Assembly (NCBI GenBank): GCA_963713825.1
Contig: CAVQNG010000003.1
Span: 1,312,001-1,376,000, forward strand
DNA: 64,000 nucleotides
Origin: an uncultured Acidobacteriota bacterium
Lineage (GTDB): Bacteria; Acidobacteriota; Thermoanaerobaculia; Multivoradales; JAHEKO01
Reading direction: 5' to 3'
The position numbers were made by a program, and so were the translations under genes. The notes under the pieces were generated by a model that ran no database searches, was not told the origin of the DNA, and saw nothing but the letters and a program-made list of their open reading frames with translations. Below, one piece after another: positions 2,179-21,420 of this stretch. Each line of letters opens with the position of its first letter. Position 1 is the first letter of the stretch.

Positions 2179-3249
2179 CTACACGTTGAAGCGGAAGTGG
2201 ATGACCTCGCCGTCTTGGACCGGGTATTCCTTGCCCTCGAGACGCAAGAGCCCCTTCTCCCGGCAGGCGGTGAGAGTGCCGAGATTCAGCAGGTCCTCCC
2301 AAGGCACCACCTCGGCCCGGATGAAGCCGCGCTCGATGTCGCTGTGAATGGCCCCTCCAGCTTGCCGAGCCAGCGTGCCGAGACGCACCGTCCAGGCCCT
2401 GACCTCGTCCTCGCCAACGGTGAAGAACGAGATCAAACCGAGCAGCTCATAGCTGGCGCGGATAACACGGTTGAGACTCGGCTCCCTCAACCCCAGATCC
2501 ACCAAGAAATGGATCTGGTGCTCGGCGTCGAGATGGGAGATCTCCTCCTCGATGGGAGCGCTCACCGTAACGACCTGCGCACCTGATGGGACTTCAATGA
2601 CGGGGTTCTCGGCAGGGCCTTCTACCAGAACAGCCTCGTCGACGTTGATCACCAGCAGCAGAGGTTTCGCTGAGAGCAGTTGAAATCCCCGCAAGCGCAG
2701 CTCGTCCTCGTTCGAAAGCTCCAGGGAGCGCAGCGGGCGCTCGTCCTCCAAGGCCGGCAGGATGATCTCGGCGAGCAGTGATTGCTCTCGTTTCTCATCT
2801 GTGGACAGACCGCGCTTCGCGCCCTGTTCCAACCTGGCGATACGTCGCTCGACGATCTCGTGGTCGGCCAGAATGAGCTCGAGGTCGATGATCGCGACGT
2901 CCCGAGCCGGATCTACCGCACCCTCCGAGTGCAGGATCTCTGGCTCCTCGAAGGCCCTGACGACATGGGCCAGAGCGTCCACCTCCCGAAGTCTCGCCAG
3001 GTCGAGGCTCTCCGCACTGCCTCCCTTCTTGAGACCGGGAATGTCCACGTAGGTTACCGTGGCAGGAGTGAATTTCTTCGGCTGATAGTGCTCCCGCAAG
3101 CGAATGAGCCGAGGGTCCGGAACCGTCGCGATGCCGACGTTGGTCTTGGTCGAAGTCGAGTACCGGTCGGTGGCCTGATGGGAGGCCGTCAGAATATTGA
3201 ACAGCGTCGTCTTGCCGACCTTGGGTAGTCCGATGATTCCTACTTCCAT
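2179..3249 (-). CDS. ychF: Ribosome-binding ATPase YchF
   Basis: 'GIIGLPKVGKTT', 'VDIPGL', TGS domain 'AGGAIHSDIERGFIRAEV', C-terminus 'GKEYPVQDGEVIHFRFNV'. Start taken at MEVG. Confidence 0.95.
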   Translation of the reverse strand: MEVGIIGLPKVGKTTLFNILTASHQATDRYSTSTKTNVGIATVPDPRLIRLREHYQPKKFTPATVTYVDIPGLKKGGSAESLDLARLREVDALAHVVRAFEEPEILHSEGAVDPARDVAIIDLELILADHEIVERRIARLEQGAKRGLSTDEKREQSLLAEIILPALEDERPLRSLELSNEDELRLRGFQLLSAKPLLLVINVDEAVLVEGPAENPVIEVPSGAQVVTVSAPIEEEISHLDAEHQIHFLVDLGLREPSLNRVIRASYELLGLISFFTVGEDEVRAWTVRLGTLARQAGGAIHSDIERGFIRAEVVPWEDLLNLGTLTACREKGLLRLEGKEYPVQDGEVIHFRFNV

Positions 3250-3432
3250 GGGAGAGAACCTCGTTGAGCGGTGTTGTTCGAGGGAGCCTGCAACAGCCGA
3301 GGAGGGCGAAGGATACACCAAACCAGCTCGACACCCTTTTGGACACTGCCTGCTGGAGTCGGTATCCTGACACCAGAAGTTCCTGATCAGACGACCCGCT
3401 CGAGCTCCAAAGACACCGCATAGGGAGAAGTC

Positions 3433-5688
3433 ATGAGAATGAGACCACCAAGCCCCTTTAGGCTTTCAGCCATCACTGTGTTCGTCGTCCTGGCGCTGTT
3501 TGGAGCTCGCTCCGCTCGTACGACCGAAACCGAAGCATGGCCTCGGGAGATCGAGACCCAGAAGGGCCTCGTAGTGATGTATCAACCCCAGATCGACAGC
3601 CTCGAAGGCAACATTTTGCATGGCCGGGCAGCGGTATCGGTGACAAGGACGGGGGAATCCGAACCGATCTTCGGTGCGGTCTGGCTGGAGAGTCGAATAG
3701 CAACCGACCTGGATACTCGGGTTGTCGAGTTCGAAGAGATTCGGGTTCCCAGGGTACGTTTTCCCGATGCGACACCCGATCAGGAGCAGGCACTCATCGA
3801 TTTATTGGTTCAGGAGATGCCCACTTGGAACATCGACCTGTCTCTCGACCGGCTGAGTGCAGCGCTCGATCTCGCCGAGAGGCAGACCCTGACGGCGGAA
3901 GGCTTCGACGACTCTCCCCCGAAGATCCTGTTCAGGCAAGAGCCGACGGTCCTGGTGACCGTTGACGGCGAACCCCAGTTGAGAGAGTTGGGGGACTCAG
4001 GGGTCCAGGGTGTGATCAACAGTCCGTTCCTGATGGCTCAAGATCCCAAGGACAAAGCCTCCTACTACCTCTATGCGGGAGCCGATACCTGGTACAAGGC
4101 GCCGGCTGTCGAAGGTCCCTGGCAGTTGACCTCGAAGGTGCCACAGCAGATCCAGCAGCTCGAGCCCGAGGAGGAGGAGCTGGACTCCGAGGAGGTTGCC
4201 GAAGGCCCAAGCACCCCACCGGCCATCGTGGTGAGCACGGAGCCAGCCGAGCTTATCGTTACCGATGGCCCGATGCAGTTCAGCCCTCTGGCTGGCGGTG
4301 AGCTTCTCGTCGTGACGAACTCGGAGAGCGATCTGCTGCGCGAAGTGGCCAGCCAGGAGATTTATGTCCTCTTGTCAGGCCGCTGGTATTCGGCTCGCTC
4401 CGAGGCAGGGCCGTGGGAGTTCAGGCGCCCCGACGAGCTACCGGAGAGCTTTGCCAGAATCGACCCGGACTCGGACTACGGCTACCTGCTCGTCTGGGTT
4501 GCAGGCACCGAGATGGCGACAGAGGCCGCCCTTGATGCCGCGGTCCCGCAGACCGCAGCCATCAAGCGGGATGCGACGATCCAGGTCGACTACGATGGCG
4601 AACCAAAGTTCGAGCCCGTCGAGGAGACAGCGCTCTACTACGCGGTCAATACGGAGTCTCAAGTCCTTCGATCCGGCAGCCAGTACTTCTGTGTCCAGGA
4701 GGGTGTGTGGTACGTCGCAGGCAGCGCGCAGGGACCCTGGGCGGTAGCCACCGAGGTGCCCGAGGAGATCCGCTCCATTCCGCCTTCGAGCCCGGTGTAC
4801 AACACCAAATATGTCTACATCTACGACACGACCCCGGAAGTGGTCTACGTCGGCTACTACCCCGGGTACACTTCCAGCTACATCTACCACGGAGTTCCGG
4901 TCTACGGCACCGGTTGGTACTACCGGCCCTGGTGGGGCCCCTACCATTACTACCCGAGATACCGGACCTGGGGCTTCAACGTGCGCTACAACCCCTGGTA
5001 CGGCTGGAGCTTTGGCCTGAGCTATTCGACCGGACGCTTCACGTTCTCGATCGGCTACGGTGGACGTGGTTGGTGGGGACCTGGAGGCTATCGGGGCTAC
5101 CGCCACGGCTATCACAGGGGCTGGCACCACGGTTACCGGGCGGGGACCCGAGCCGGGTATCAGGCGGGCTACCGTTCCGCCAAGCGGGATTCAGCCCGCA
5201 ACATGTATCAACGTCAGGGGAATGCCAACAGGGTGGCCCACACTTCGGGAACCAGGCCTGGCGCGGGCACGGCACAAGCTAGATCGCCGAATGTGTCGAA
5301 CCGGGCGAACAACGTCTATACCGACAAGAACGGCAACGTCTTTCGGAAGCAGCAGGACGGTAGCTGGCAGCAACGGGACGGTGGAAACTGGAAGGCAGCC
5401 GACATGAGTGGGGCAGCTGGCTCCCGGGAGGCGGCAAACAAGCCCTCGACCGGCACTCGCCCGACCGATCGGAGCGCCCCTTCCACCGGAGCTGTGGGTA
5501 CTCAACAGCAGAAGCCGAGGACAAGTACCGGGGGCACGAAGCAGCAGAAGCCGAAGACGAGCACTGGACAGTACGGTGGCAGCAGCAATCTGAATCGCGA
5601 CGCCAGTGCGCGGCAGCGAGGCAACCAGCGCGCCAGGAGCGCCCCTCGAGGTGGTGGCGGTCGCGGCGGTGGAGGCCGGCGGCGCTAG
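3433..5688 (+). CDS. Secreted protein with Tyr/Trp-rich region and Gly/Arg-rich low-complexity tail
   Basis: RBS GGAG, signal peptide, repeated 'W..A...GPW' units, C-terminus ending RGGGGRGGGGRRR. Confidence 0.8.
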   Translation: MRMRPPSPFRLSAITVFVVLALFGARSARTTETEAWPREIETQKGLVVMYQPQIDSLEGNILHGRAAVSVTRTGESEPIFGAVWLESRIATDLDTRVVEFEEIRVPRVRFPDATPDQEQALIDLLVQEMPTWNIDLSLDRLSAALDLAERQTLTAEGFDDSPPKILFRQEPTVLVTVDGEPQLRELGDSGVQGVINSPFLMAQDPKDKASYYLYAGADTWYKAPAVEGPWQLTSKVPQQIQQLEPEEEELDSEEVAEGPSTPPAIVVSTEPAELIVTDGPMQFSPLAGGELLVVTNSESDLLREVASQEIYVLLSGRWYSARSEAGPWEFRRPDELPESFARIDPDSDYGYLLVWVAGTEMATEAALDAAVPQTAAIKRDATIQVDYDGEPKFEPVEETALYYAVNTESQVLRSGSQYFCVQEGVWYVAGSAQGPWAVATEVPEEIRSIPPSSPVYNTKYVYIYDTTPEVVYVGYYPGYTSSYIYHGVPVYGTGWYYRPWWGPYHYYPRYRTWGFNVRYNPWYGWSFGLSYSTGRFTFSIGYGGRGWWGPGGYRGYRHGYHRGWHHGYRAGTRAGYQAGYRSAKRDSARNMYQRQGNANRVAHTSGTRPGAGTAQARSPNVSNRANNVYTDKNGNVFRKQQDGSWQQRDGGNWKAADMSGAAGSREAANKPSTGTRPTDRSAPSTGAVGTQQQKPRTSTGGTKQQKPKTSTGQYGGSSNLNRDASARQRGNQRARSAPRGGGGRGGGGRRR

Positions 5689-7013
5689 GGTATGGCCAAC
5701 GTCCAGCGACGGGTATCGCCGGATTCGACCCCGTCGACGAAAATGACGTCTAGGCCCTCGTAGGCGCCGATATCGAAAGCCGGACCCAAAGGTCGGGGCG
5801 TGCCCTCGAGGTCTGTCAGGACTTGCGTCAGGGTTTCGCCGTTGTCGAGGGCAGGACTACCCTCTCGAAGATGGAAATCACCGCCCGGGTCGATGAAGAG
5901 GGCTGCCGGTGAAGACCGGAGTGAGTCCTGATCGTGGCCGGTCTGTGCTCTCCATTCCGCAAGGCTCAGGACCGTGTCGCCATCATCCACGGTGAAGCGA
6001 TCCATGACCACATTGTGATCGGAGCTGAATCCGGCAAGGGAGTCAGCGGTGACGGAGACGCTGCCACGGAACGAATGGTAGTTGTAGAAGACGTTGTTGC
6101 GCACCCGGTTGTCGGTGGAGCTGTTCTTGATGTTGAGGGCCCACCGACCATCGTCGGCGACGATGACTGTGTTGTTGTAGACGTGGTTGCCTGTCGAAGC
6201 AGCGCCACCATCGATTCTGTAGAGCGAGATGCCACTCGCATGATTGTCGAAGAGCAGGTTGTTGCGGATGATGGAGCTCTGGACCCCATCCATATTGATG
6301 CCAGAGCCTCCCCCCAGACCGTTGCCGTAGATGGTGTTGTTCTCGACTACGGCTTCACTGATGATGCCGTCCCCACCCTGTGAGGCATCTCCATTCATGT
6401 GAATGCCATTGGCGCGGTTGTCCCAGATCCGGTTGCCTCGGATCGTCGGTCTGTCGCCACTATTGCTGACATAGATCCCGTGCTCGTCGCCACTGTTGGA
6501 GGTGTGATTCGACTCGATCAACAGGTCGTCGCAGAATCCGGTGAAGATGCCCCAACGTCCGTTACCGTCCAGGCGATTGCCCCGAAGAACAACGTTCTCG
6601 CATAGAACGGCGCGGATTCCAGCCCGCGTCCGGCCGTTGATGTGCAGGCCCTCGACGACAAAGTGGCTGGCACCTTCGAGGTTGATGCCGTCGGGCGTGT
6701 GCGGATTGTCGTCGTCGATCTCGACGGTCTCGCCAGGAAAGGCCTTTACAGTGATGGGCAGGGCGACCGTACCTGAAGTCGTGAAGTGAGCGCCGGCGAA
6801 ACTTCCCGCTCTCAGAAGTACAGTGTCTCCGGGCTGGATCACGCCGGCTGCGTGCTGCAAGGTCGCCCAGGGACTTCCCAGGGTTCCAGAATTGGAATCG
6901 CCTCCGGCTGGCGGGGGAGCGACGTAGTAGGTGGCGGCGCCGAGGCTCACTGGAGGCAAGGCGGCTACCAGAATTCCTGCCAGCAACGAGAACAACCCCG
7001 TAGAATGCGCCAT
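5685..7013 (-). CDS. Secreted right-handed parallel beta-helix protein
   Basis: 'TYYVAP...G.D.N.G...PWATLQHA', Asn-rich beta-helix repeats, 'DIGAYE', terminal 'IFVDGVESGD..W'. Start uncertain (7013 or 7040). Confidence 0.85.
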   Translation of the reverse strand: MAHSTGLFSLLAGILVAALPPVSLGAATYYVAPPPAGGDSNSGTLGSPWATLQHAAGVIQPGDTVLLRAGSFAGAHFTTSGTVALPITVKAFPGETVEIDDDNPHTPDGINLEGASHFVVEGLHINGRTRAGIRAVLCENVVLRGNRLDGNGRWGIFTGFCDDLLIESNHTSNSGDEHGIYVSNSGDRPTIRGNRIWDNRANGIHMNGDASQGGDGIISEAVVENNTIYGNGLGGGSGINMDGVQSSIIRNNLLFDNHASGISLYRIDGGAASTGNHVYNNTVIVADDGRWALNIKNSSTDNRVRNNVFYNYHSFRGSVSVTADSLAGFSSDHNVVMDRFTVDDGDTVLSLAEWRAQTGHDQDSLRSSPAALFIDPGGDFHLREGSPALDNGETLTQVLTDLEGTPRPLGPAFDIGAYEGLDVIFVDGVESGDTRRWTLAIP

Positions 7014-7178
7014 TTCCGGTCCCCAGCGATGCCTCTTCATCGTACTGTGGGAGAGTCGAAGCGGCAGCGGAGCAAGACACAGAGACGGATGCGCAGAGCT
7101 GGCTCCGAAAGTGGGGCAAGGTAGGCTATGCCATTCAGATCCGATCACAAGGCCGCTCGAGGCCACCAGGAGGAATCA

Positions 7179-7808
7179 ATGGGAACACCGAAGAAAGGCA
7201 TCCAGATCGTCAGCATTGTCGGCACCAGTCGGCCGGGCAATTTCACCGCCAGGGCCGTCGAAGTGGTCAATGACGAGCTGCGGAAGTCTGGCGTCGAAGT
7301 CACGACGATCGATCCGGCGAAGGTCGAGTTGAACTTTCCCGGCCAACCGGTGACCGAGGGTGCGAGAGAGGTGCAGCGTGCCGTTGAAGGTGCCACAGGT
7401 GTTGTCATGGCGACGCCCGAGTACCATGGATCGTTTGCCAGTGCTCTGAAGCTCATCATCGAGAACCTTGGATTTCCTTCAAAGCTCTCTGGCAAACCGA
7501 TCGCCCTGCTCGGAGTTGCGAGCGGGCGCATCGGAGCGATCAAATCTCTGGAACAGCTGCGTAGTGTTTGCTCGCACGTCGGAGGAATCGTGCTGCCTGG
7601 TCCGGTTTCGGTGGCCGCCGTTCACCGGGTCTTCGATGACCAGGGGAAGTGCCTGGACGAGGCCGTGGAGAAGCAGGTGAGAGGGGTGGCGACCCACCTT
7701 CTGGACTATCTGGATCAGAACATCTGTCCGCGCATCGCCCTGGAGGCGATCGTCAGGGCCGGCGGCGAGTCGGACATCCCGGTGCCAACATGCAGCCGTG
7801 GCGCGTGA
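7179..7808 (+). CDS. NAD(P)H-dependent FMN reductase
   Basis: 'GTSRPGN', 'ATPEYHGSFASALK'; RBS GGAGG before ATG 7179. Confidence 0.9.
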   Translation: MGTPKKGIQIVSIVGTSRPGNFTARAVEVVNDELRKSGVEVTTIDPAKVELNFPGQPVTEGAREVQRAVEGATGVVMATPEYHGSFASALKLIIENLGFPSKLSGKPIALLGVASGRIGAIKSLEQLRSVCSHVGGIVLPGPVSVAAVHRVFDDQGKCLDEAVEKQVRGVATHLLDYLDQNICPRIALEAIVRAGGESDIPVPTCSRGA

Positions 7809-7863
7809 GTCCTGACTCTTCGCCCCAGATGGGTCACACAGATCTTCTGAACCTGGGCGGGAC

Positions 7864-8955
7864 CTATCGGACCTGAGCCGGTTGGAGCGTCAGCAGGACA
7901 GCCTCGGGGGGACAGCCAATCCGGAATGGGAATCCTGTGGCGCCGAGGCCTCGACTGACGACGAGTTGTGAATTGCCGGCTCGGTAGTGCCCTTCATCGA
8001 GTCGGTAACGGCTCATCCGGACCAGGACTGGTAGACCGGGAAGCCGCCACTGGCCGCCGTGGGTGTGGCCGGCCAGGACCAGGGAGACATCGCGATCCAC
8101 CGCTTCAGGAAATACATCTGGGTTGTGAGAGAGCAAGAGGCTCGCAGCCCCGTCAGGCCTCCCTTGGAGGGCCGATTCGAGCTGCGCTTCGCCGCACAGT
8201 AGGTCGTCGACACCTGCGAGCAAGAGACGGCCGCCGCCGCGTTCGAGCATCACCGAGCGATTCTGAAGGAAGCGGACTCCGCTGGACTCCAGCAGCTCCA
8301 TGAGAGCCTCGGGCTGGCCGGTGTAATGGTCGTGATTGCCGAGAACCCCGTACACACCGAGGGGAGCCGCCAGGGTTTTGTAGGTCGGAGCTGTCGGTTC
8401 CACCTCCTCCAAGCGAACGGTGGCGAAATCACCGGCCAGGAGTATGAGGTCGGGCTCCAGGGTCATGAGCCTGTCGAAGGTGCGTTCGAGCGCTCCGGGA
8501 GCCAGGAAGGGTCCGGCGTGGAAGTCCGAGATCAGCAGCAGCTTCAGGTCGGCAAAGCTGTGGTCGAGTTGTTGGATAGCGATTGAAGCCTCCGAGACCG
8601 TAAGGTCCCGCTCGAGAGCTCGACTATAGGGCCAGGCGATTCCCGGGACTCGCGGGAAGATGCGATGGCTCAGAAACTTGTTTGTGCCGCGCTCGACTCT
8701 GCGAAACCAGCCTTTTGCCGGGTTGAAGAGGTGCCGGAGTCGAAAACTGGTGGCTGAAGGTGGCCCCAGGCTCTCATGGTGAACGCCGGAAGGGTCTGGT
8801 GACGATTCTGATGACCCCTGGGTGTCCGTCGGTCGCTCAGCCGTCGGTGGAGTACTGTCAGTATCCCGCGCCTCCCTCTTGTCTCCAGTCCGAGTCGATC
8901 GAGAAGTCGGCTCTGGCGGTACCTCGCGAGGTGGCGGCAAGTCCGAAAAACGCAT
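7864..8955 (-). CDS. Metallophosphoesterase (YkuE/YaeI-like)
   Basis: Motifs SDFH, GD, GNHD, SHNPD, AGHTHGGQ. Start uncertain. Confidence 0.88.
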   Translation of the reverse strand: MRFSDLPPPREVPPEPTSRSTRTGDKREARDTDSTPPTAERPTDTQGSSESSPDPSGVHHESLGPPSATSFRLRHLFNPAKGWFRRVERGTNKFLSHRIFPRVPGIAWPYSRALERDLTVSEASIAIQQLDHSFADLKLLLISDFHAGPFLAPGALERTFDRLMTLEPDLILLAGDFATVRLEEVEPTAPTYKTLAAPLGVYGVLGNHDHYTGQPEALMELLESSGVRFLQNRSVMLERGGGRLLLAGVDDLLCGEAQLESALQGRPDGAASLLLSHNPDVFPEAVDRDVSLVLAGHTHGGQWRLPGLPVLVRMSRYRLDEGHYRAGNSQLVVSRGLGATGFPFRIGCPPEAVLLTLQPAQVR

Positions 8956-8965
8956 GGTGACGAGC

Positions 8966-10489
8966 CTACAGCTGGGCCTCGGGGCGAAGCGCCTCATCGG
9001 TGGCGCGACCCAGGCGCATGACGACTTCGGGAAAGGCTTCGATGTCCTCCAACGAAGTGCGAAAGTTGACCACGCAGATGCGCAGGGCGAATCGCTCCTG
9101 GATGATGGCGTTGGAAAGATAGATCTCGCCCGAGCGCTCGATGCGAGCCAGGATCTCCTGATTCAAATCGTTGAGATAGGAACGCACCGGCTCTGTCTCG
9201 GAACGGTCGAGGAGATCGTGCGGAACATAGCGAAAAGTCGTAATGCTCAAATTCTGCGACAGGGCCTCGATCTCAGGGTAGTCGGTCAGCAGGTCGTGCA
9301 AGGCTCTGGCCAGTTGGATGTCGTCTCGAATCATCTGCACATAGCCGGAGCGGCCCACCTGCTGCAGAGCGAGCCAGACCTTGAGGGCCCGAAAGCCGCG
9401 CGAGTTCTGCAGTCCGTATTCGAAGTAGTTCGTGGCCAGCTCGCCAAAGTGATAGTACGGCGCACCATGTGCGAAGGCACCTCGTAGCGTTTCGGGATCC
9501 CGCACCAGGGCGCAGCCTGCTTCCAAGGGAGCGTAGAGCCACTTGTGTGGATCCACCGCGACGGAATCGGCCTCCGGCATGCCCGCGAGCAGGTCAGCAG
9601 CCTCGGGAACCGCGGCGGCCAGAGCGCCGTAGGCACCATCGACGTGGAACCAGAGGTCTCTCTCACGGCAGATCTCTGCGAGCTCCGCGAGAGGGTCGAT
9701 TGCCCCAGTGCTGACGGTACTGGCCGTGCCGACCACCAGGAACGGTTGATCACCCTCCGCAACATCCTTGTCGAGTTGGCTTCTCAGATCCGCCAGGTCC
9801 AGGCGTGATTCGTCGTCGACTCGAATCGAACGTAGCGAGTCGGTCCCGAGTCCCGAGATATCCATCGCCTTGTTGATCCAGGTGTGGACCTCGGTCGAGG
9901 CGTAGACGCGCATCGGACCCCCCGGGTTGGCGTCGAGGCCGCGGCCTTGCAGGTCCCAGCTCGCCTTCGAGGTGCGGGCGGCAAGGAAGCAGACGATATT
10001 CGCCAGGTTGCCGCCGCTGACCAGCACCCCGCCAGAGCTCTCGGGATAGCCGATGAGCTCGGCGATCCAGCGCACCGTCTGGGCCTCGATCTCCGTGGCC
10101 ATCGGTGCGATGGGCCAGGCTCCGACATTGGGGTTGACCGCGGCGGCGAGCAGATCTCCCAGCATGCCGATGGGGGCAGGCGCGGAGGTGATGTAGCCGA
10201 GGAAACGGGGATGGCCGTTGAAGAGGGAGTGATCGAAGAGTAGCTTGGTGGTCTCCTCGAGTAGTGCTGTCGCGTCGGTACCGTGCTCCGGAAGTCGACG
10301 AGAGGCCTTCAGCGCGTCACGTATGGTTCCGGGGCTCTCCGCCGGGGTGACGGGTCGGTCTGGCAACGAGCCCAGTAGCTCGGCGATTCGGTCGACGACC
10401 TGATGGCCGACTCGACGGAACTCGTTGGGACTCATATCCAGTGGAGCGCAACGGTTCTTCAGTCGATCCAGTTGATCACTACTCGTCAT
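8966..10489 (-). CDS. PLP-dependent group II (aromatic-type) amino acid decarboxylase
   Basis: 'HPRFLGY', 'WFHVDGAYG', 'DPHKWL' (PLP lysine), 'RGFRALKVW'. Confidence 0.92.
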   Translation of the reverse strand: MTSSDQLDRLKNRCAPLDMSPNEFRRVGHQVVDRIAELLGSLPDRPVTPAESPGTIRDALKASRRLPEHGTDATALLEETTKLLFDHSLFNGHPRFLGYITSAPAPIGMLGDLLAAAVNPNVGAWPIAPMATEIEAQTVRWIAELIGYPESSGGVLVSGGNLANIVCFLAARTSKASWDLQGRGLDANPGGPMRVYASTEVHTWINKAMDISGLGTDSLRSIRVDDESRLDLADLRSQLDKDVAEGDQPFLVVGTASTVSTGAIDPLAELAEICRERDLWFHVDGAYGALAAAVPEAADLLAGMPEADSVAVDPHKWLYAPLEAGCALVRDPETLRGAFAHGAPYYHFGELATNYFEYGLQNSRGFRALKVWLALQQVGRSGYVQMIRDDIQLARALHDLLTDYPEIEALSQNLSITTFRYVPHDLLDRSETEPVRSYLNDLNQEILARIERSGEIYLSNAIIQERFALRICVVNFRTSLEDIEAFPEVVMRLGRATDEALRPEAQL

Positions 10490-15475: not shown

Positions 15476-17398
15476 TTACTGCACCGTTGCGCTCCATGCG
15501 GAGGTGTCGCCGCTCTCGAATCCGTCGGCGAACGGCAAACCTGTACAGAACTGCCCCCAATGGGTGGCCCAGCGCCCTCTCTCGACCGCGCCGCCGTCGC
15601 CTGTGTTTGTGGGGCTGCCCTGCGTCATGGCGTACTGATTGAACACCCAGAAGCAACCGCTCGCTGCCGGGTCGATTGCGATTCCAGACCAGTCGCCCCA
15701 GCGATTGGCATTGCCGTCGCCTAGCCGAGTTCGAACGTAGAAGGCCTCGCCTTCATGGAGTGTCCCGGAGCCCCGGGTGGTCCCCGCGGCATCGGAAACA
15801 CCGCGGAAGGTGAAGTAGGCACCTGGGTTGATGGTCGGGCTGGATGCCGCGAAGCCCACGGCGACCGAGGCGCCATCGAAGGTGATCGACGGGAAGAAAG
15901 TATGTGTACCTGCTGATATGTCCTCGCCATCGACCACGCCCTGATCCGCGGTGGTCAGATTTGCCATGTTGCTGGTGTCGATCTCGTTCCAGTAGGCGGT
16001 GGCCTCACCGTCGTTGCCTGGAAAAGCGGTACCGGTCGGGTTGATCGTCTGAGCGGTAAACAAGGAATTGTCGCGCCAAACTGCTGAGAGCGTGGAACGG
16101 TCGTTGGTTTCGACCCTGACCGTCGTGCCCTTCTGACGGGCGTTGGGCAGCTGTGGAGCGCTCGACAGGTCCTCGATGTCTCCGAGGTTCACGAAATCAT
16201 GTGTGAACGTGGCGGCGCCCAGGGGGTTGTCAACTCGAATCACTTGCAGCAGCTCGGCTTTGGTTCCGTCGCCGCCCGTGTCGAATGTCGTGCCCGAGTA
16301 TCCGACGAGATAAGTTCCGAATCCCGCAGCCGGGGTGCCGAAGACTGCCGCTGGCTGAAGTGCAGCCTGCAGATCCAGGGCCACGCCGGTAGTGCTGTAG
16401 GGCTCAAAGAGATTGACGTCGGCTGTGTCGCAGTCGTAGAAGCCACCGGTCGTACCCTTGTCGATCGTCCAGAGGCGAATCCCACCGAAGGGCAGGGCAG
16501 GGTCTTCGGAGGCGAACTCGAACAAGCTTGCGGTGAGGTAGACAGCTTCTTCGTCGACCACCAGGCCGGGGTAGTCGGCCCACGTGAATACGCCGCCACC
16601 GACATCGGTCTTGGCCTCGATCTCCGCACTGCACCAGGTCCCATTTGGATTCCCATCGTCAGAGACTGCGACAAAGAGGCTCGACTCGTCGGTGGGAGTC
16701 CCATCGAGAATCTGATCCGAGACGCTGAGAATGACCACCACGAAACGATCTTCATACGGGTCGTACGTCACCTTCGGGTCGTAGGTGAAGGCGAGGGGGG
16801 TGAGGCCGAGGTTGGTCAAGAAGCCGTCCAGATCGCCTTGAGAATCGAGAGTCCCATCCTTCTGCCGGATCTCGATGATCTCGTTGATGATGTCGACGAC
16901 ATGATTCTGGCCGACGGCGCCGATCGGATCCGGCGGAATCCGGCCCTCGCCATTGACGATCGGGTTGTCGTCGAAATCGGGACCCTCGAAGGAAGTGAAT
17001 AGGGTTGGAGCATTGGGCAGCGGGGCTCGCGACCCTTCGCTGCTTGACTCGACTGAAGCCTCCGAGCGCTCGGTCGGTGCCGTGCGTGGCTCGCTGCGCC
17101 CCGGGGAATCAATGACCTGAATGAAGCTCAGCAAGTCGGGCTGTGAGACTCGATACTGCGCCCCGGGTTCACGAACGTCGGCCTGTACCGGGACGCCCTC
17201 CACCGAGCCGATGAAAGCACGAGGAGCACCGGAGGCTCTGAGAGGAAGACGGGCTGGTCTCGTGGTATGTGAACTTTCGATACCTGGCTGCGGGAAATCG
17301 GTTTCGTGGCCCGAAAGGACGAGACCCAACCCGACAGCCAATGCGACAGAGAATAGTGCCAGGACCAATACAGTCTTGTGTGATTTGAGAAATTTCAT
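15476..17398 (-). CDS. Large secreted protein of unknown function with C-terminal FADGFESGD tail
   Basis: Signal peptide, RBS GGAG, 'PPDPIGAVG', 'DPKVTYD', 'WADYP', 'RWGDWS', ends 'FADGFESGDTSAWSATVQ'. Confidence 0.85.
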   Translation of the reverse strand: MKFLKSHKTVLVLALFSVALAVGLGLVLSGHETDFPQPGIESSHTTRPARLPLRASGAPRAFIGSVEGVPVQADVREPGAQYRVSQPDLLSFIQVIDSPGRSEPRTAPTERSEASVESSSEGSRAPLPNAPTLFTSFEGPDFDDNPIVNGEGRIPPDPIGAVGQNHVVDIINEIIEIRQKDGTLDSQGDLDGFLTNLGLTPLAFTYDPKVTYDPYEDRFVVVILSVSDQILDGTPTDESSLFVAVSDDGNPNGTWCSAEIEAKTDVGGGVFTWADYPGLVVDEEAVYLTASLFEFASEDPALPFGGIRLWTIDKGTTGGFYDCDTADVNLFEPYSTTGVALDLQAALQPAAVFGTPAAGFGTYLVGYSGTTFDTGGDGTKAELLQVIRVDNPLGAATFTHDFVNLGDIEDLSSAPQLPNARQKGTTVRVETNDRSTLSAVWRDNSLFTAQTINPTGTAFPGNDGEATAYWNEIDTSNMANLTTADQGVVDGEDISAGTHTFFPSITFDGASVAVGFAASSPTINPGAYFTFRGVSDAAGTTRGSGTLHEGEAFYVRTRLGDGNANRWGDWSGIAIDPAASGCFWVFNQYAMTQGSPTNTGDGGAVERGRWATHWGQFCTGLPFADGFESGDTSAWSATVQ

Positions 17399-17630: not shown

Positions 17631-18887
17631 ATGGATGGAACCTCGGACATCGTCCTCGAACCGGAAATGCGGGTGCTTCTGCGAACCGCAAGGATCGAGC
17701 TCGGGGTGCAAGATGTCGGAGATTTGACGCAGCTCGTCCACAATGGGTTGGATTGGCGGCGCTTGCTGGAAAGGGCCGAGTGGAATGAGACTGCAGCCCT
17801 TGTGGTGCGTCACCTGGAGGCTGCTGGCCAGATCGAGGTGGTTCCGGAGGCAGTCCTCTCGAGGCTACGGACCATCAAGCTGGAGCAGCGGGTGCGGTTC
17901 TTCTTCTTCCTTCAGCCCGAGTTGCTGCGGGTGCTCGAAGGGATGGAGTCGGCGGGGTTGGAGATCATCCCTCTGAAGGGCGCCTACCTGATGAACAAGA
18001 TCTACCCGGACGTGAGCCTCCGGCCAGTGGGTGACCTGGATCTCCTGGCGCGAGAAGAGGATCTGCCCCGTGCGATGCAGACTCTCTCCCAGCTGGGGTA
18101 TCGATCCAAGGCGGGCGAGGAGCCGCTGCCCAGTGGCGCGATCGACGACCACCATCACTGTCCCAGAGTGCTGAGCCCCGATGGGTCCGTCGAGCTCGAG
18201 CTGCATCGTCATGTCGTCCGACGACGGACTCCTCTCTATTTTCCTGTCGAGCGATTCTGGGAGCGCAGCGCAGTTGGTGAAATCAAGGGGCGAACGGTGA
18301 GAGTGCTGGCCGGCGAGGATCTGGTGACCCACCTCTGCTGCGCCTTCTTTCTCGACCGTCGAAGGAGAGCTCGAGGGTACGGTGCCTTGCGGCAGTTGAT
18401 GGATCTGTCGGAGTCGGTCCGTCATTGCGAGCCCGACATCGATTGGGAGAGGTTGATCCAGGAGAACGCAGGCGGGGCTCTGCAGGCTCCTCTCTACGTT
18501 GCACTGCGAGCGGCACGAGAGTTGCTGGAGGCGCCGGTGCCAGCTGAGTTTCTGGACAACTTCAGGCCGAGGAAGTTCGACGACGACGTATTCGGCCACT
18601 TCCTGCGTTACAAAGTTCTCAACCCTGGAATGTGGTTTTTCCACGAGCTCGTGGACCCGCACGACAATCATTGGTGGAACATGAGCAAAGCCGCCATTCA
18701 CAGGCTATTACCGCCGACTTCCTATCTACAGAACAAGTATGGCCCGGGGGACGACAGGGCGGAAGGGCAATTGCTCCGGAGGCACTTGCGGGATACTTTC
18801 CGCACGGCTCTGGCGACTTGTCGAAGGCCGGGCTCGATGATTCGGGAGCTGCGAGCCGACTTCTGGATGAATCAGATCCAGCTCTGA
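17631..18887 (+). CDS. Nucleotidyltransferase family protein (NTP_transf_5-like)
   Basis: 'PLKGAYL', 'YPDVSLRPVGDLDLL' (DxD), 'ELELHRH', 'RQLMDL'. Confidence 0.85.
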   Translation: MDGTSDIVLEPEMRVLLRTARIELGVQDVGDLTQLVHNGLDWRRLLERAEWNETAALVVRHLEAAGQIEVVPEAVLSRLRTIKLEQRVRFFFFLQPELLRVLEGMESAGLEIIPLKGAYLMNKIYPDVSLRPVGDLDLLAREEDLPRAMQTLSQLGYRSKAGEEPLPSGAIDDHHHCPRVLSPDGSVELELHRHVVRRRTPLYFPVERFWERSAVGEIKGRTVRVLAGEDLVTHLCCAFFLDRRRRARGYGALRQLMDLSESVRHCEPDIDWERLIQENAGGALQAPLYVALRAARELLEAPVPAEFLDNFRPRKFDDDVFGHFLRYKVLNPGMWFFHELVDPHDNHWWNMSKAAIHRLLPPTSYLQNKYGPGDDRAEGQLLRRHLRDTFRTALATCRRPGSMIRELRADFWMNQIQL

Positions 18888-18903: not shown

Positions 18904-19731
18904 CTAGGTGGCTACCCTCATTGTCTCGAGGACCAGCTCGCATGTCGCGCCGAGTCGGCTAGAGGTCAATTCGAAACAGGGGACTCTGGTGGCGATATCG
19001 ACTGCGACATCCAAGCCGCTGCCTGGGTGGGCCAGTGGATTGAGGGCGTTGGAGTAGAGCCTGACGGCGGCTTTCGCGGTTCCGATCTCCTGGACCCTTG
19101 GCTGTTCAGCGTTGGGATCGAAGCGGGGGAAGAACACACCCGCCAAAGGTACGGGTGTGTCCACAGGCGGTTGCGCCAGGCAACGGACCGGTACGTGCAG
19201 GGGATCCTGACCCTGGAGGAGATCGGCAGGAGCCGCGTAGGGAATCGGCGGATTCGATTTGAGACAGATCGCTCGACTGAAGGGGGCCACGGTCAAGTCT
19301 GTCGGATTGATCGGCCCCAGCTCATCGCTCGAGTAGCGAAGACCGTGCTGTAGAAGTGCCCAGGACAGCGTCGACTTGCCGTGTCCTCGAGGGGCGGGGA
19401 AGAGGAACGATCGTTCGTCGAGAGTCACGACCGCGGCATGCTGGAAGTAGAGGTCCGGTCTCAGGAGTTGCAGCTGCACGACGAGATCGTCATCGAAGTG
19501 CATCAGCAGATCTGCCGATCTCTGGACGCAGATCACATCTGTATTTCGTTGGATGCGAAGCCCTGAAGAGGTCGAGTCATCGATGGAGTAGGACAGGTCG
19601 GGTGTAGCGTCGGGAACCTCGAGGTGCCCGTAGCTTGCCCTGAGCACAGAGATGCCATCTTCGCAGTCGCCACGAGTCTCGATGACTCGATCCAGGATGC
19701 GAATGACCAGGGAGGGTGGTGTGACGCTCAA
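18904..19731 (-). CDS. HPr-kinase-related peptide kinase
   Basis: 'HAAVV', Walker A 'APRGHGKSTL', 'YSSDELGPI'. Short, lacking the HprK N-terminal domain. TTG start. Confidence 0.85.
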   Translation of the reverse strand: MSVTPPSLVIRILDRVIETRGDCEDGISVLRASYGHLEVPDATPDLSYSIDDSTSSGLRIQRNTDVICVQRSADLLMHFDDDLVVQLQLLRPDLYFQHAAVVTLDERSFLFPAPRGHGKSTLSWALLQHGLRYSSDELGPINPTDLTVAPFSRAICLKSNPPIPYAAPADLLQGQDPLHVPVRCLAQPPVDTPVPLAGVFFPRFDPNAEQPRVQEIGTAKAAVRLYSNALNPLAHPGSGLDVAVDIATRVPCFELTSSRLGATCELVLETMRVAT

Positions 19732-19795: not shown

Positions 19796-19829
19796 ACAAA
19801 GAAAAACCGGCGCGCCGAGCGCGCCGGTT
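19796..19829 (-). terminator. Intrinsic terminator between precursor peptide and kinase genes
   Basis: Minus strand reads AACCGGCGCG-CTCGG-CGCGCCGGTT followed by TTTCTTTG. Confidence 0.85.
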
Positions 19830-19911
19830 CATGTACAAACCTGCCTTCGCAGGCATCGCTAATCCGAGCCAAACCTGGGCCGTTGATCAGCCCGCGAGGC
19901 GAGATCGTGAT

Positions 19912-20061
19912 CTAGCGAGTCGGTGACGGCTTGTCCGTCCTGGTCGGTGCACCCGAGGACGCATTGGCCTTACCAGGCTTGGCCGCAAGCGTCAGAATTA
20001 CGGGCGTCGCGTAGGCAGCCGCCTTCAGTACCTCTCTGCGTGTTCTCTTCTTTTCTGCCAT
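19912..20061 (-). CDS. Putative RiPP precursor, 49 aa (MAEKKRTRREVLKAAAYATPVILTLAAKPGKANASSGAPTRTDKPSPTR)
   Basis: Strong SD AAAGGAG before ATG 20061; YxxPxI leader motif; sits between the PqqD/RRE and kinase genes. Confidence 0.8.
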   Translation of the reverse strand: MAEKKRTRREVLKAAAYATPVILTLAAKPGKANASSGAPTRTDKPSPTR

Positions 20062-20082
20062 AACCGCTCTCCTTTCTTCCTT

Positions 20083-20128
20083 AACAGTACTCCCTCGTAC
20101 TGTTGCTACCTTTTCTAAAAAGGTAGCA
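20083..20128. promoter_or_regulatory. Two back-to-back perfect inverted repeats upstream of the precursor gene
   Basis: AACAGTAC-N6-GTACTGTT (20083-20104) and TGCTACCTTTT-N3-AAAAGGTAGCA (20104-20128). Confidence 0.6.
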
Positions 20129-20140
20129 GAGCCTACATCA

Positions 20141-20401
20141 CTAGGATAACAGAAGTCCAATCTCCTCGAGCTTCTCGAGCGTATCGGCTACATCTTGCCC
20201 AGCAGTTTCGGCATCGACCTGGAAGGTCGTCGCCAACTCCTCGGCGATCTGCTGCCGGTTGTGTTCGCCGTCACACAGTTGCCAGATGAAGCTCGCTGTC
20301 TGGTTCAATTGATGGATCTGTTCGGACTCTTTGTCCATGACCACCATCTCGCCTTCGACGATGCGTTCTTCGAATTCTGCGCGTCGGGTCGGATTCTTCA
20401 T
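20141..20401 (-). CDS. PqqD family RiPP recognition element (RRE)
   Basis: 86 aa; 'IHQLNQTASFIWQLCDG', 'IAEELATTFQVD', 'DVADTLEKLEEIGLL'. Confidence 0.92.
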   Translation of the reverse strand: MKNPTRRAEFEERIVEGEMVVMDKESEQIHQLNQTASFIWQLCDGEHNRQQIAEELATTFQVDAETAGQDVADTLEKLEEIGLLLS

Positions 20402-20550
20402 AACCTTTGTCCCAACTCCGAATGGAGTTCTGACTCAATAGAGAGTGTAGGAAGCCAGGGTTGATCGGTCAACCTTATCGAGAACTCTCTATATTGCCTT
20501 TTTTGGTACCCGGTTTTCTCTAGACAGCTTGGCTGGGTGAGACGGTACCG

Positions 20551-21420
20551 TCAACAGGTGTCGTAGGAGAGCCAGCCAATCAGCTCGCCACTGGCTCCAA
20601 CAATCCGCTCGTGCTGGTAGCACTCGCCGGCAGGAGGTCGCCGGCTGCGAGGTGTGAAGATCGGGCTCCAGCCATCGTGAAGGCCAATCGCAGGCCCCTT
20701 GAGAGGGGTCAGGGCCCGGACGACAGATCCTTGACGAGTCGCCACGCATTCGAAGCCTGCGGCCTGAGAATTTACGGTTCGGACCCCAACTCTCTGGTCA
20801 TCGATCGACCACGCCTTGACGGCTTTGGCCGCGGTGCCCGGAGTCTGCGCCAGGCAGCTTTCGATGGCTGGAAGGAGATCGAAGAGTCGTTTCGACCAAT
20901 CGCCAGGGGGCTTCTCGTCGAGAACGGCGATCGGCAGACCGGCGAGGTCGGCGTCGATCTCTTCGATCAGCGCCTGGTCCTCCTCGATCAGCGGCTCGTC
21001 AGTGCTGTCTACCTGCGACTCCGACCAACTCTCGGTACTTGGATCCGAGGTCGAGTCGCAACAGCCCAGAAGAACGCTTCCATCGGGCAGCGAGAGACTG
21101 ACACTGTAGGGGTAATCGCGATCGACCATCGTGTCCGAGCAGGGCCGGTGGGTAACGAAGGCCACCAGGTCTCCTTCACCGAATTTGCCACGCCAGGCGA
21201 AGAGTCCGGCGTAGTCCAGCCGCTGGAAGGTGCCTTCGAGGGTTTGGCCGGCGGGTTCTTCAGGAGTCGCCCATCCGGCGTTCTCGCTATCGATCGCCAA
21301 GCCCCAGAAGGGCTCGTTGCCATTGCATTTGAACTCGGAGGGCATAGAGGCATGAGCCGCCGAGGCCAGCATGATGGCGCAAGACAAGATCGAGGCGGTC
21401 GGAAATGTAATTGAAGGCAA
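20551..21420 (-). CDS. Secreted COG3650-like protein
   Basis: 'GNEPFW' and 'CSDTMVDRDYP...GCC' motifs. Start uncertain. Confidence 0.7.
   Translation of the reverse strand: MPSITFPTASILSCAIMLASAAHASMPSEFKCNGNEPFWGLAIDSENAGWATPEEPAGQTLEGTFQRLDYAGLFAWRGKFGEGDLVAFVTHRPCSDTMVDRDYPYSVSLSLPDGSVLLGCCDSTSDPSTESWSESQVDSTDEPLIEEDQALIEEIDADLAGLPIAVLDEKPPGDWSKRLFDLLPAIESCLAQTPGTAAKAVKAWSIDDQRVGVRTVNSQAAGFECVATRQGSVVRALTPLKGPAIGLHDGWSPIFTPRSRRPPAGECYQHERIVGASGELIGWLSYDTC

Follow-up and report, generated by a model that had tools for sequence, protein, structure and literature searches.

A short precursor peptide with a twin-arginine-like leader in lasso register beside a recognition element, a candidate kinase and a nucleotidyltransferase in an acidobacterial genome

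The window analysed here is a stretch of 64,000 nucleotides from an uncultured Acidobacteriota bacterium (assembly GCA_963713825.1, contig CAVQNG010000003.1), and the subject of this account is a 49-residue peptide encoded within it, together with the neighbouring genes for a PqqD-family recognition element for peptides that are made on ribosomes and modified after translation (RiPPs; RiPP recognition element, RRE), a candidate peptide kinase and a nucleotidyltransferase. In window coordinates, the locus consists of the following features.

20141..20401, minus strand: PqqD-family RRE, 86 residues (PF05402, 5.5e-20, 71.9 bits against a cut-off of 23.4)
20069..20074, minus strand: Shine-Dalgarno sequence AAGGAG, 7 nucleotides 5' of the peptide's ATG
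19912..20061, minus strand: precursor peptide gene, 49 residues (translation, homologues and codon-position pattern)
19804..19830, minus strand: intrinsic terminator-like hairpin of 12 pairs, 9 of them G-C, plus a T run; it separates the peptide gene from the kinase gene
18904..19731, minus strand: candidate HPr-kinase-related peptide kinase, 275 residues (TIGR04352, 5.5e-22, 78.2 bits against a cut-off of 200)
17631..18887, plus strand: NTP_transf_5 nucleotidyltransferase, 418 residues (PF14907, 4.6e-47, 161 bits)

The peptide, MAEKKRTRREVLKAAAYATPVILTLAAKPGKANASSGAPTRTDKPSPTR, constitutes the last 49 residues of a listed open reading frame (ORF) of 82 residues (translation of 19912-20160, minus strand); its ATG lies at 20061, and its gene begins 80 nucleotides downstream of the PqqD gene on the same strand. 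A preliminary description of this DNA had noticed that the longer ORF call conceals the peptide, and the translation agrees with it on every motif it listed (TRREVLK at residues 7-13, YATPVI at 17-22 and A-N-A at 32-34) as well as on the 15-residue tail, SSGAPTRTDKPSPTR, with six Ser/Thr residues and Asp at tail position 9. The precursor contains no Cys; residues 1-32 form a signal-like leader and residues 33-49 a variable tail that includes an invariant Ser36. The 49-residue start is correct because of the Shine-Dalgarno spacing, the lengths of the homologues and the patternless variation upstream: AAGGAG is kept in four of five aligned genomes, with an A replaced by G in the remaining one; 16 of the 18 close database homologues are 48-50 residues long, and the other two, of 63 and 77 residues, hold an internal MAEK start identical to that of the 49-residue peptide; and 18 of the 30 nucleotide columns 5' of the ATG are variable, with no codon pattern. 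In an alignment of five genomes, leader codons 1-32 contain 2, 1 and 19 variable columns at the first, second and third codon positions; 19 codons vary only synonymously, and a single one alters its residue. Purifying selection acts on the ORF in its own reading frame. No Pfam or NCBIfam family matched the peptide at E ≤ 0.01. The preliminary description had named failure of translation as a ground for abandoning the peptide, which the third-codon-position substitutions, the Shine-Dalgarno sequence, the terminator and the homologues contradict, and confidence is high that the peptide is a genuine precursor belonging to the RRE, kinase and nucleotidyltransferase cassette.

A family search against 1.84 billion representative proteins returned 31 proteins at E ≤ 1e-3, and the relatives carry no source annotation beyond 'hypothetical protein'. 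Among 301 Acidobacteriota genomes, 12 had a profile match, which was convincing (E ≤ 4.4e-6) in five of the 12 and weak in genome G049. Conservation was counted over 89 unique relatives, a set that includes peptides from fetched loci and about three spurious regular-expression hits. The front-half consensus is [ST]RRE-V/I-L/I-KKAAYxTPVILTLAAxP[SAG]xA-xx-GSG: position 7 is Thr in 57 and Ser in 27 relatives, the twin arginines are retained in 85/89 (R8) and 88/89 (R9), and positions 11 and 12 are hydrophobic in 85 (V/F/L/I) and 87 (L/I/V), respectively. Further along, K13 (83/89), Y17 (86/89), P20 (87/89), T24 (80/89), A27 (84/89), P29 (78/89) and A32 (85/89) are conserved, position 22 is I/V/L in 87/89, position 30 is small in 78/89 (S 47, A 25, G 6), position 35 is G/A/S in 88/89 and S36 recurs in 86/89; position 34 varies (A 25, G 13, K 13, T 12, S 7). 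Beyond this front half the sequences share nothing. The tails, counted from position 33 in 86 members, span 9-184 residues (median 27), with G, K, S, R, P and D abundant; Ser36 is the sole hydroxyl residue common to all of them and, in four of the 86, the only Ser or Thr at all. Family members thus pair a front half of 32 residues that hardly vary with a charged, low-complexity tail that is hypervariable. Longer proteins using the same front half as a signal were sought among 23 candidates and none was found at E ≤ 0.01, which is weak evidence. Some cassettes (L057, at 3048-3230 and 4752-4991, L058 and L059) hold two peptide genes flanking the kinase gene; the paired peptides have one and the same leader, and both tails terminate in GPKK(Y/H).

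The genes for the RRE, the peptide, the kinase and the nucleotidyltransferase travel together. Synteny was assessed by profile searches in 77 metagenome loci, which a narrower alignment of the family had retrieved; many of them are near-duplicates, so that the counts refer to loci and not to independent lineages. At least one cassette gene (PqqD, kinase or NTP_transf_5) lies beside the peptide in 48/77 loci: PqqD in 34 of the 54 loci with at least 350 nucleotides upstream, the kinase in 38 of the 59 with at least 500 nucleotides downstream, and NTP_transf_5 in 19/42. The commonest order, on a single strand, is RRE-peptide-kinase-nucleotidyltransferase; the nucleotidyltransferase gene is collinear with the kinase gene in most other loci and convergent with it in the window, an arrangement retained in four close relatives, and two other Acidobacteriota genomes carry a rearranged version of all four genes. 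No protease, ABC exporter or cyclase is conserved in seven long related loci, and a scan of the window from 12 to 30 kb, covering 20 ORFs, found no gene for a protease, cyclase or exporter. The preliminary description had proposed a precursor with an RRE-binding leader motif and had remarked on the absence of a dedicated protease and exporter; a precursor-like peptide next to an RRE, and this absence, are borne out here by the PF05402 match, the synteny and the scans. It had missed the HPr-kinase-like kinase, the NTP_transf_5 nucleotidyltransferase and the invariant Ser36.

At the level of the individual proteins, the cassette RRE is closest to lasso B1 proteins: in a comparison of its family profile with solved structures, TbiB1 (1.5e-10) and TfuB1 (3.4e-10) ranked ahead of PqqD (2.7e-8). 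A kinase motif, H..PxGxGKST..SDEL, is retained in all 35 unique cassette kinases aligned. The window kinase reads H98, P-R-G-H-G-K-S-T and S-D-E-L against the published H...G-x-x-G-x-G-K-S...D-D (PMC10368454), with the first Gly replaced and D-D changed to D-E. In a sequence search against solved structures, neither the kinase nor the nucleotidyltransferase gave a match at E ≤ 1.

Several variants of the arrangement were observed in more distant loci. Cassette-less members of the family in L084, L086 and L100 adjoin IS21-type/DDE transposases or a phage-type integrase, and their SRRxFVKK stands nearer to the Tat (twin-arginine translocation) consensus. Two members read K-R for R-R (L026, 8424-8594, plus strand, SKRKFIKK; L027, 9191-8943, minus strand, SKRLFVKK), and these peptides are convergent with their own PqqD gene and adjoin the kinase and the nucleotidyltransferase. 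In four other Acidobacteriota genomes (L124-L127), sets of RRE, HPr-kinase-like and NTP_transf_5 genes occur with the family peptide absent within about 6 kb, and no small ORF with YxxPx[LIVM] was found beside these sets. A search of 201 Acidobacteriota genomes matched HprK-related kinases in 45; a single kinase exceeded the TIGR04352 cut-off, and it belongs to one of the L124-L127 sets. In the distant locus L104, the NTP_transf_5 protein (3230-4588, plus strand) has a SET (methyltransferase) domain at its C-terminus, and the peptide and PqqD genes are separated by a gene for a VKOR-DsbA fusion.

Lasso numbering of the peptide assigns Y17 to -17, P20 to -14 and I22 to -12; Ala32 and Ser36, both invariant, then occupy -2 and +3, respectively. 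The YxxPxL motif always occupies -17 to -12 in lasso leaders, according to PMC10368454, in which BsfK is described as phosphorylating core Ser3 and no other residue, strongly accelerated by the B1 RRE, and the BsfA variant I(-2)A as polyphosphorylated at Ser3 and no longer cleaved by B2. The proposal that YATPVI resembles the lasso leader motif holds, given the exact register and the conservation of Y17, P20 and I22, and so does the remark that the conserved Thr at -2 is lacking: where lasso leaders have Thr (rarely Ile or Val), this family has Ala32, with Ala in 85/89.

The suggestion of lasso ring geometry fared otherwise. Asp does stand at tail position 9, and this residue, Asp43, is invariant in the 18 close homologues; only six residues follow it in the window peptide, the distance from the candidate start to the Asp shifts with insertions and deletions among close homologues, an acidic residue is lacking at ring positions 7-9 in 29 of 86 tails, and seven of the 86 contain no Asp or Glu whatever. 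In a search of the genome, B2 was found on contigs C5 and C32 only, with none at the window locus; asparagine-synthase matches occur on C5, C32 and other contigs, none at the window locus, the nearest being about 71 kb away. Lasso ring formation was rejected on these grounds, namely an unlinked cyclase and B2, Ala at -2, an indel-shifted Asp and the seven acid-free tails.

A complete lasso cluster is present elsewhere in the genome, on contig C5 (364000-376000), and is duplicated on C32. In the numbering of that locus (L108) it comprises the following genes.

2421-3632, plus strand: NTP_transf_5
6067-5639, minus strand: B2 protease
6326-6054, minus strand: B1 PqqD
6423-7241, plus strand: HPr-kinase-like protein
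7090-9204, plus strand: cyclase

A candidate lasso precursor ending at 9358 accompanies them, with YNKPEL and a Thr exactly at -2 when Tyr is set at -17; its predicted first core residue, Lys, is unusual. The YxxPxL register is present in this precursor, and the hydrophobic stretch and twin arginine are absent. Between the window proteins and their C5 counterparts the resemblance is remote (RRE 24% over 72 residues, kinase 35% over 51 residues).

With respect to export, the Tat consensus is S/T-R-R-x-F-L-K, and the peptide has T-R-R-E-V-L-K, followed by an uncharged stretch of 14 residues (14-27), P29 and G30-K31-A32, with two Lys just ahead of the small-x-Ala site in the window's subfamily. 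Arg is retained at positions 8 and 9 while flanking basic positions vary freely, and P29-[SAG]30-x-A32 is conserved in the form of a signal peptidase site. The preliminary description had staked the signal on conservation of the twin arginine and an A-x-A site; twin arginine, uncharged stretch and small-x-Ala are all conserved in distant homologues, so this ground for refutation fails. Its signal peptidase site survives in form (A32 in 85/89), and its cleavage point after A34 does not, Ala occurring there in 25/89; because A34 is unconserved, the candidate cleavage is moved to after Ala32. The only named models that surface at weak thresholds are Tat-signal models (TIGR01409, formate_TAT, UCR_Fe-S_N and others), PF10518 gave no match to the peptide at E ≤ 1, and among named Atlas clusters the nearest consist of Tat-exported proteins, at scores of 0.83-0.87 that serve as leads only. 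Cassette-less members, which lie beside transposases, integrases and unrelated genes, retain the entire front half, and the 99% complete genome of one such lone member contains no cassette-type kinase. TatC is encoded in the window's genome. A loose Tat-like regular expression of our own was discarded as a single-sequence test, as it found 55 ORFs in the genome against 59 in reversed sequences; set against the residue conservation, this result means that the Tat-like pattern exceeds chance as a family and not as a single sequence.

Further features concern the transcript and the outer neighbourhood of the cassette.

20444..20472, minus strand: sigma-70-like promoter, TTGACC-17-TACACT, upstream of the PqqD gene; weak, with 2 sites against 1.0 expected
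20127..20105 and 20104..20083, minus strand: two adjacent RNA hairpins between the PqqD stop codon and the ribosome-binding site of the peptide gene
20551-21420, minus strand: conserved gene, 289 residues, N-terminal signal sequence, Cys-containing, no Pfam or NCBIfam match
15476-17398, minus strand: conserved gene, 640 residues, N-terminal signal sequence, no Pfam or NCBIfam match

The hairpin pair (20083-20127) has a minimum free energy of -33.1 kcal/mol (z = -4.33), equalled by none of 200 shuffles; in four relatives its stems are largely retained and its loops variable, the second stem being partly altered in L011. Its role may lie in RNA processing or stability, raising the level of precursor mRNA over that of enzyme mRNA. 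Contigs from RNA libraries of three studies cover only 19952-20416, that is, the PqqD gene and the leader-coding part of the peptide gene, and are uninformative for the kinase gene and the upstream 289-residue gene, which have no such cover. They differ from the window in the leader at six positions, all of them third codon positions, and their ends at 20381-20416 are a weak hint of a promoter upstream of PqqD. In one contig the 123 tail-coding nucleotides are exchanged for 129 other letters, after which the match resumes at 19828..19796 (the terminator) and ends there, with 18 unmatched letters beyond. These contigs directly show a conserved leader with a variable tail, and they hint weakly at a shared transcript for RRE and peptide. 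The 289- and 640-residue secreted-protein genes flank the cassette in close relatives only; a 267-residue antisense ORF overlapping the former is conserved at 48% against 69%, which marks the minus-strand reading as the gene.

The explanation that best accounts for the whole, as read from sequence, is RRE-guided phospho-modification of Ser36, followed by export through the Tat or general secretory (Sec) route and cleavage after Ala32; the prospects of this entire scheme are evenly balanced, while Ser36 phosphorylation and export by a general pathway, each taken separately, merit moderate confidence. The 49-residue ORF would be the substrate (A) gene of a four-gene cassette with the RRE, the HPr-kinase-like kinase and the NTP_transf_5 nucleotidyltransferase, and the cassette would represent the tailoring half of phosphorylated lasso pathways minus the cyclase and leader protease. 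The RRE would bind the Y-x-x-P-x-I stretch, the kinase would phosphorylate Ser36 in the manner of BsfK acting on Ser3 with the help of the B1 RRE, and the phosphate may be extended by the nucleotidyltransferase, by analogy with pseudomycoidin, in which such an enzyme adds a hexose to phosphoserine (PMC8498205). We infer RRE-assisted phosphorylation of Ser36 from the lasso register, the Ser at +3, the kinase motif and the BsfK precedent, and Ser36 is predicted to be the likely modification site. The front half would double as a Tat-type signal peptide, so that the general Tat pathway (or Sec) could export the modified peptide and signal peptidase I would cut after Ala32, releasing NASSGAPTRTDKPSPTR in the window's genome. 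With YxxPxI situated within the hydrophobic core, binding by the RRE would be in competition with targeting to the translocase, which suggests an ordered hand-over; RRE binding could delay export until modification is complete. A bolder version, which we put forward tentatively and regard as possible more than probable, holds that the Tat signal is itself the RiPP leader and that the RRE acts like a Tat-proofreading chaperone, retaining the peptide until Ser36 has been marked, and perhaps extended, before release to Tat and signal peptidase I. A predicted complex of RRE and peptide scored 0.47 against 0.00 for the best control (partner predicted local distance difference test at least 53; runs agreeing in at least 92% of contacts), a result classed as weak support and not counted as evidence. 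The mark it passed was passed by 58/80 solved complexes and 2/110 mismatched pairs, with scores of 0.60 or less coming from 7/80 solved complexes and from both passing mismatches, and the pass may derive from the solved lasso B1-leader complexes that exist.

Several observations weigh against this scheme. In PMC10368454, phosphorylation of BsfA persists when Y(-17), P(-14) and L(-12) are replaced by Ala, singly or combined, so the role of the motif in the kinase step is unsure; known lasso kinases other than BsfK target a C-terminal Ser, according to PMC8498205, and the window peptide ends in Arg. The RNA evidence consists of assembled contigs alone, with no control from DNA runs or silent stretches. 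The uncharged stretch of 14 residues is short and includes Tyr, Thr and Pro. The remaining objections speak at the same time for a purely cytoplasmic RiPP leader, in which the twin arginine, the hydrophobic stretch and Ala32 would be enzyme-recognition features, the likeness to Tat signals would be coincidental, and the product would be retained or processed by an unlinked protease. Front-half conservation far exceeds that of ordinary signal peptides and could be accounted for by enzyme recognition alone; the TIGR01409 score is 14.3 bits against a cut-off of 16.7 (E 0.041, residues 7-34), with 3/30 members matching at E ≤ 1; in the genome, the loose Tat pattern turns up about as often as in reversed sequences; K-R replaces R-R in two cassette-linked Acidobacteriota members; and the lasso-type register by itself explains Y17, P20, I22 and A32 with no need for export. 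However, the candidate C5 lasso precursor manages without the twin arginine and the hydrophobic stretch, so that both are additions in the window family, Arg rather than Lys is retained twice where nearby basic positions are free, P29-[SAG]-x-A32 resembles a signal peptidase site, no protease is linked, and cassette-less members preserve all of these features, one of them in the nearly complete genome mentioned above. A leader confined to the cytoplasm is accordingly regarded as somewhat unlikely, if still a serious contender.

The converse possibility, that the peptides are an ordinary small exported family whose signal merely adjoins a cassette acting elsewhere, draws on the 29/77 loci with no cassette gene nearby, which also count against the scheme proposed here, and on the complete-looking genome with peptide and no cassette, the enzyme sets lacking the peptide family in the four other genomes examined and the weakness of the complex prediction. 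It is nevertheless improbable, as the RRE-peptide-kinase order recurs at 40-55% peptide identity and in rearranged loci, a lasso-register YxxPxI together with a Ser at +3 would be difficult to account for if no RRE and kinase were involved, and a conserved leader with a hypervariable tail is typical of modified peptides. Far less credible is a genuine lasso peptide for which the cyclase and B2 protease of C5 would act in trans. The register, the Asp43 shared by 18 close homologues and the complete lasso cluster, which includes a kinase and a nucleotidyltransferase of its own, would suit it; against these stand the lack of cyclase and B2 at the locus and in the seven long related loci, the invariant Ala at -2 (in PMC10368454, I(-2)A in BsfA abolished B2 cleavage), the indel-dependent position of Asp and the acid-free tails, the mere six residues after Asp43 and the remoteness of the cassette proteins from their C5 counterparts. 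That the ORF is a chance intergenic reading and no gene at all has a negligible likelihood: its shortness, the lack of a Pfam or NCBIfam match and the 'hypothetical protein' labels of its relatives could be cited for it, and the third-codon-position substitutions, Shine-Dalgarno sequence, terminator and distant homologues with conserved neighbours oppose it.

RiPP pathways normally need a leader protease and an exporter of their own. Known bacterial exceptions are few and use Sec signals (PMC11626156). If RRE-guided modification followed by general export is correct, the lasso modification module of RRE, kinase and nucleotidyltransferase would be detachable and could be plugged into general secretion, one short sequence would serve both an RRE and a translocase in a defined and testable case, and an unannotated peptide family and the 'HprK-related' kinase cassettes would gain a name and a predicted substrate residue, Ser36. 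On the bolder version, loss of cyclase and protease from lasso tailoring modules would have given rise to a new class of phospho-(glyco)peptides that are exported. Genome mining by cyclase or protease would overlook such clusters, and gene callers skip the peptide or bury it in a longer ORF. In a literature search that left supplements and subscription journals outside its scope, no report was found of an RRE-dependent peptide with a Tat-like leader, nor of an RRE-kinase-nucleotidyltransferase cassette without lasso genes together with its substrate. Searches for HprK-related kinase, HPr-rel-A, TIGR04352 or TIGR04353, or for RRE-Finder with HPr kinase, returned nothing; among the matches listed for twin-arginine, RiPP and RRE combined, all were off-topic by title and start of abstract, and the one listed for PF14907 concerned phosphonates.

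Among known systems, the HPr-rel-A models (TIGR04352 HprK_rel_A and TIGR04353 PqqD_rel_X) describe the same families as neighbours and both match window proteins, but neither match reaches its curated cut-off (78.2 bits where 200 are required, and 30.1 where 35 are), and the models include no precursor. Tat signals (TIGR01409, PF10518) share with the leader the pattern [ST]-R-R-x-hydrophobic-hydrophobic-K, a short and weakly hydrophobic core and basic residues before small-x-Ala, and a small cytoplasmic protein is predicted to bind the window signal. Such a small signal-binding protein resembles the Tat chaperones of the TorD/DmsD type. The differences are that the window passenger is a disordered peptide of 17 residues and not a folded cofactor protein, that the score is below the cut-off, and that the binder has an RRE fold and does not belong to the TorD family.

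The closest characterised system is the bsf-type phosphorylated lasso pathway (BsfA, B1, B2, C, K, N), which PMC10368454 places in Bradymonadales, Acidobacteriaceae and Sphingomonadales. Both systems combine an RRE of the PqqD type with an HPr-kinase-like peptide kinase and a gene for a nucleotidyltransferase, and in both YxxPx[L/I] lies at -17 to -12, a Ser is conserved at +3 and the residue at -2 is not Thr. The window cassette differs in lacking cyclase and B2, in its invariant Ala at -2, in a leader to which a twin-arginine motif and a hydrophobic stretch add signal-peptide architecture, in hypervariable tails that are often unable to form a ring, and in a kinase with S-D-E where BsfK has D-D. 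Paeninodin and pseudomycoidin tailoring (PMC8498205) likewise combines an HPr-kinase homologue with a nucleotidyltransferase, a Ser of the linear precursor being phosphorylated and a hexose added; their Ser is C-terminal, whereas the window peptide ends in Arg and has its conserved Ser near the junction of leader and tail.

Closest in logic are the bufferins (PMC11626156), modified ribosomal peptides that likewise carry an N-terminal signal for a general pathway and have no dedicated exporter or leader protease, and whose authors describe signal-peptide RiPPs as rare among bacteria. They are made by MNIO (DUF692) and DUF2063 enzymes, and no MNIO domain was found among the window neighbours or in the seven long related loci. 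In addition, bufferins have Cys-rich folded cores and Sec signals that were dispensable for modification, whereas the signal of the window peptide is Tat-like and contains the RRE motif.

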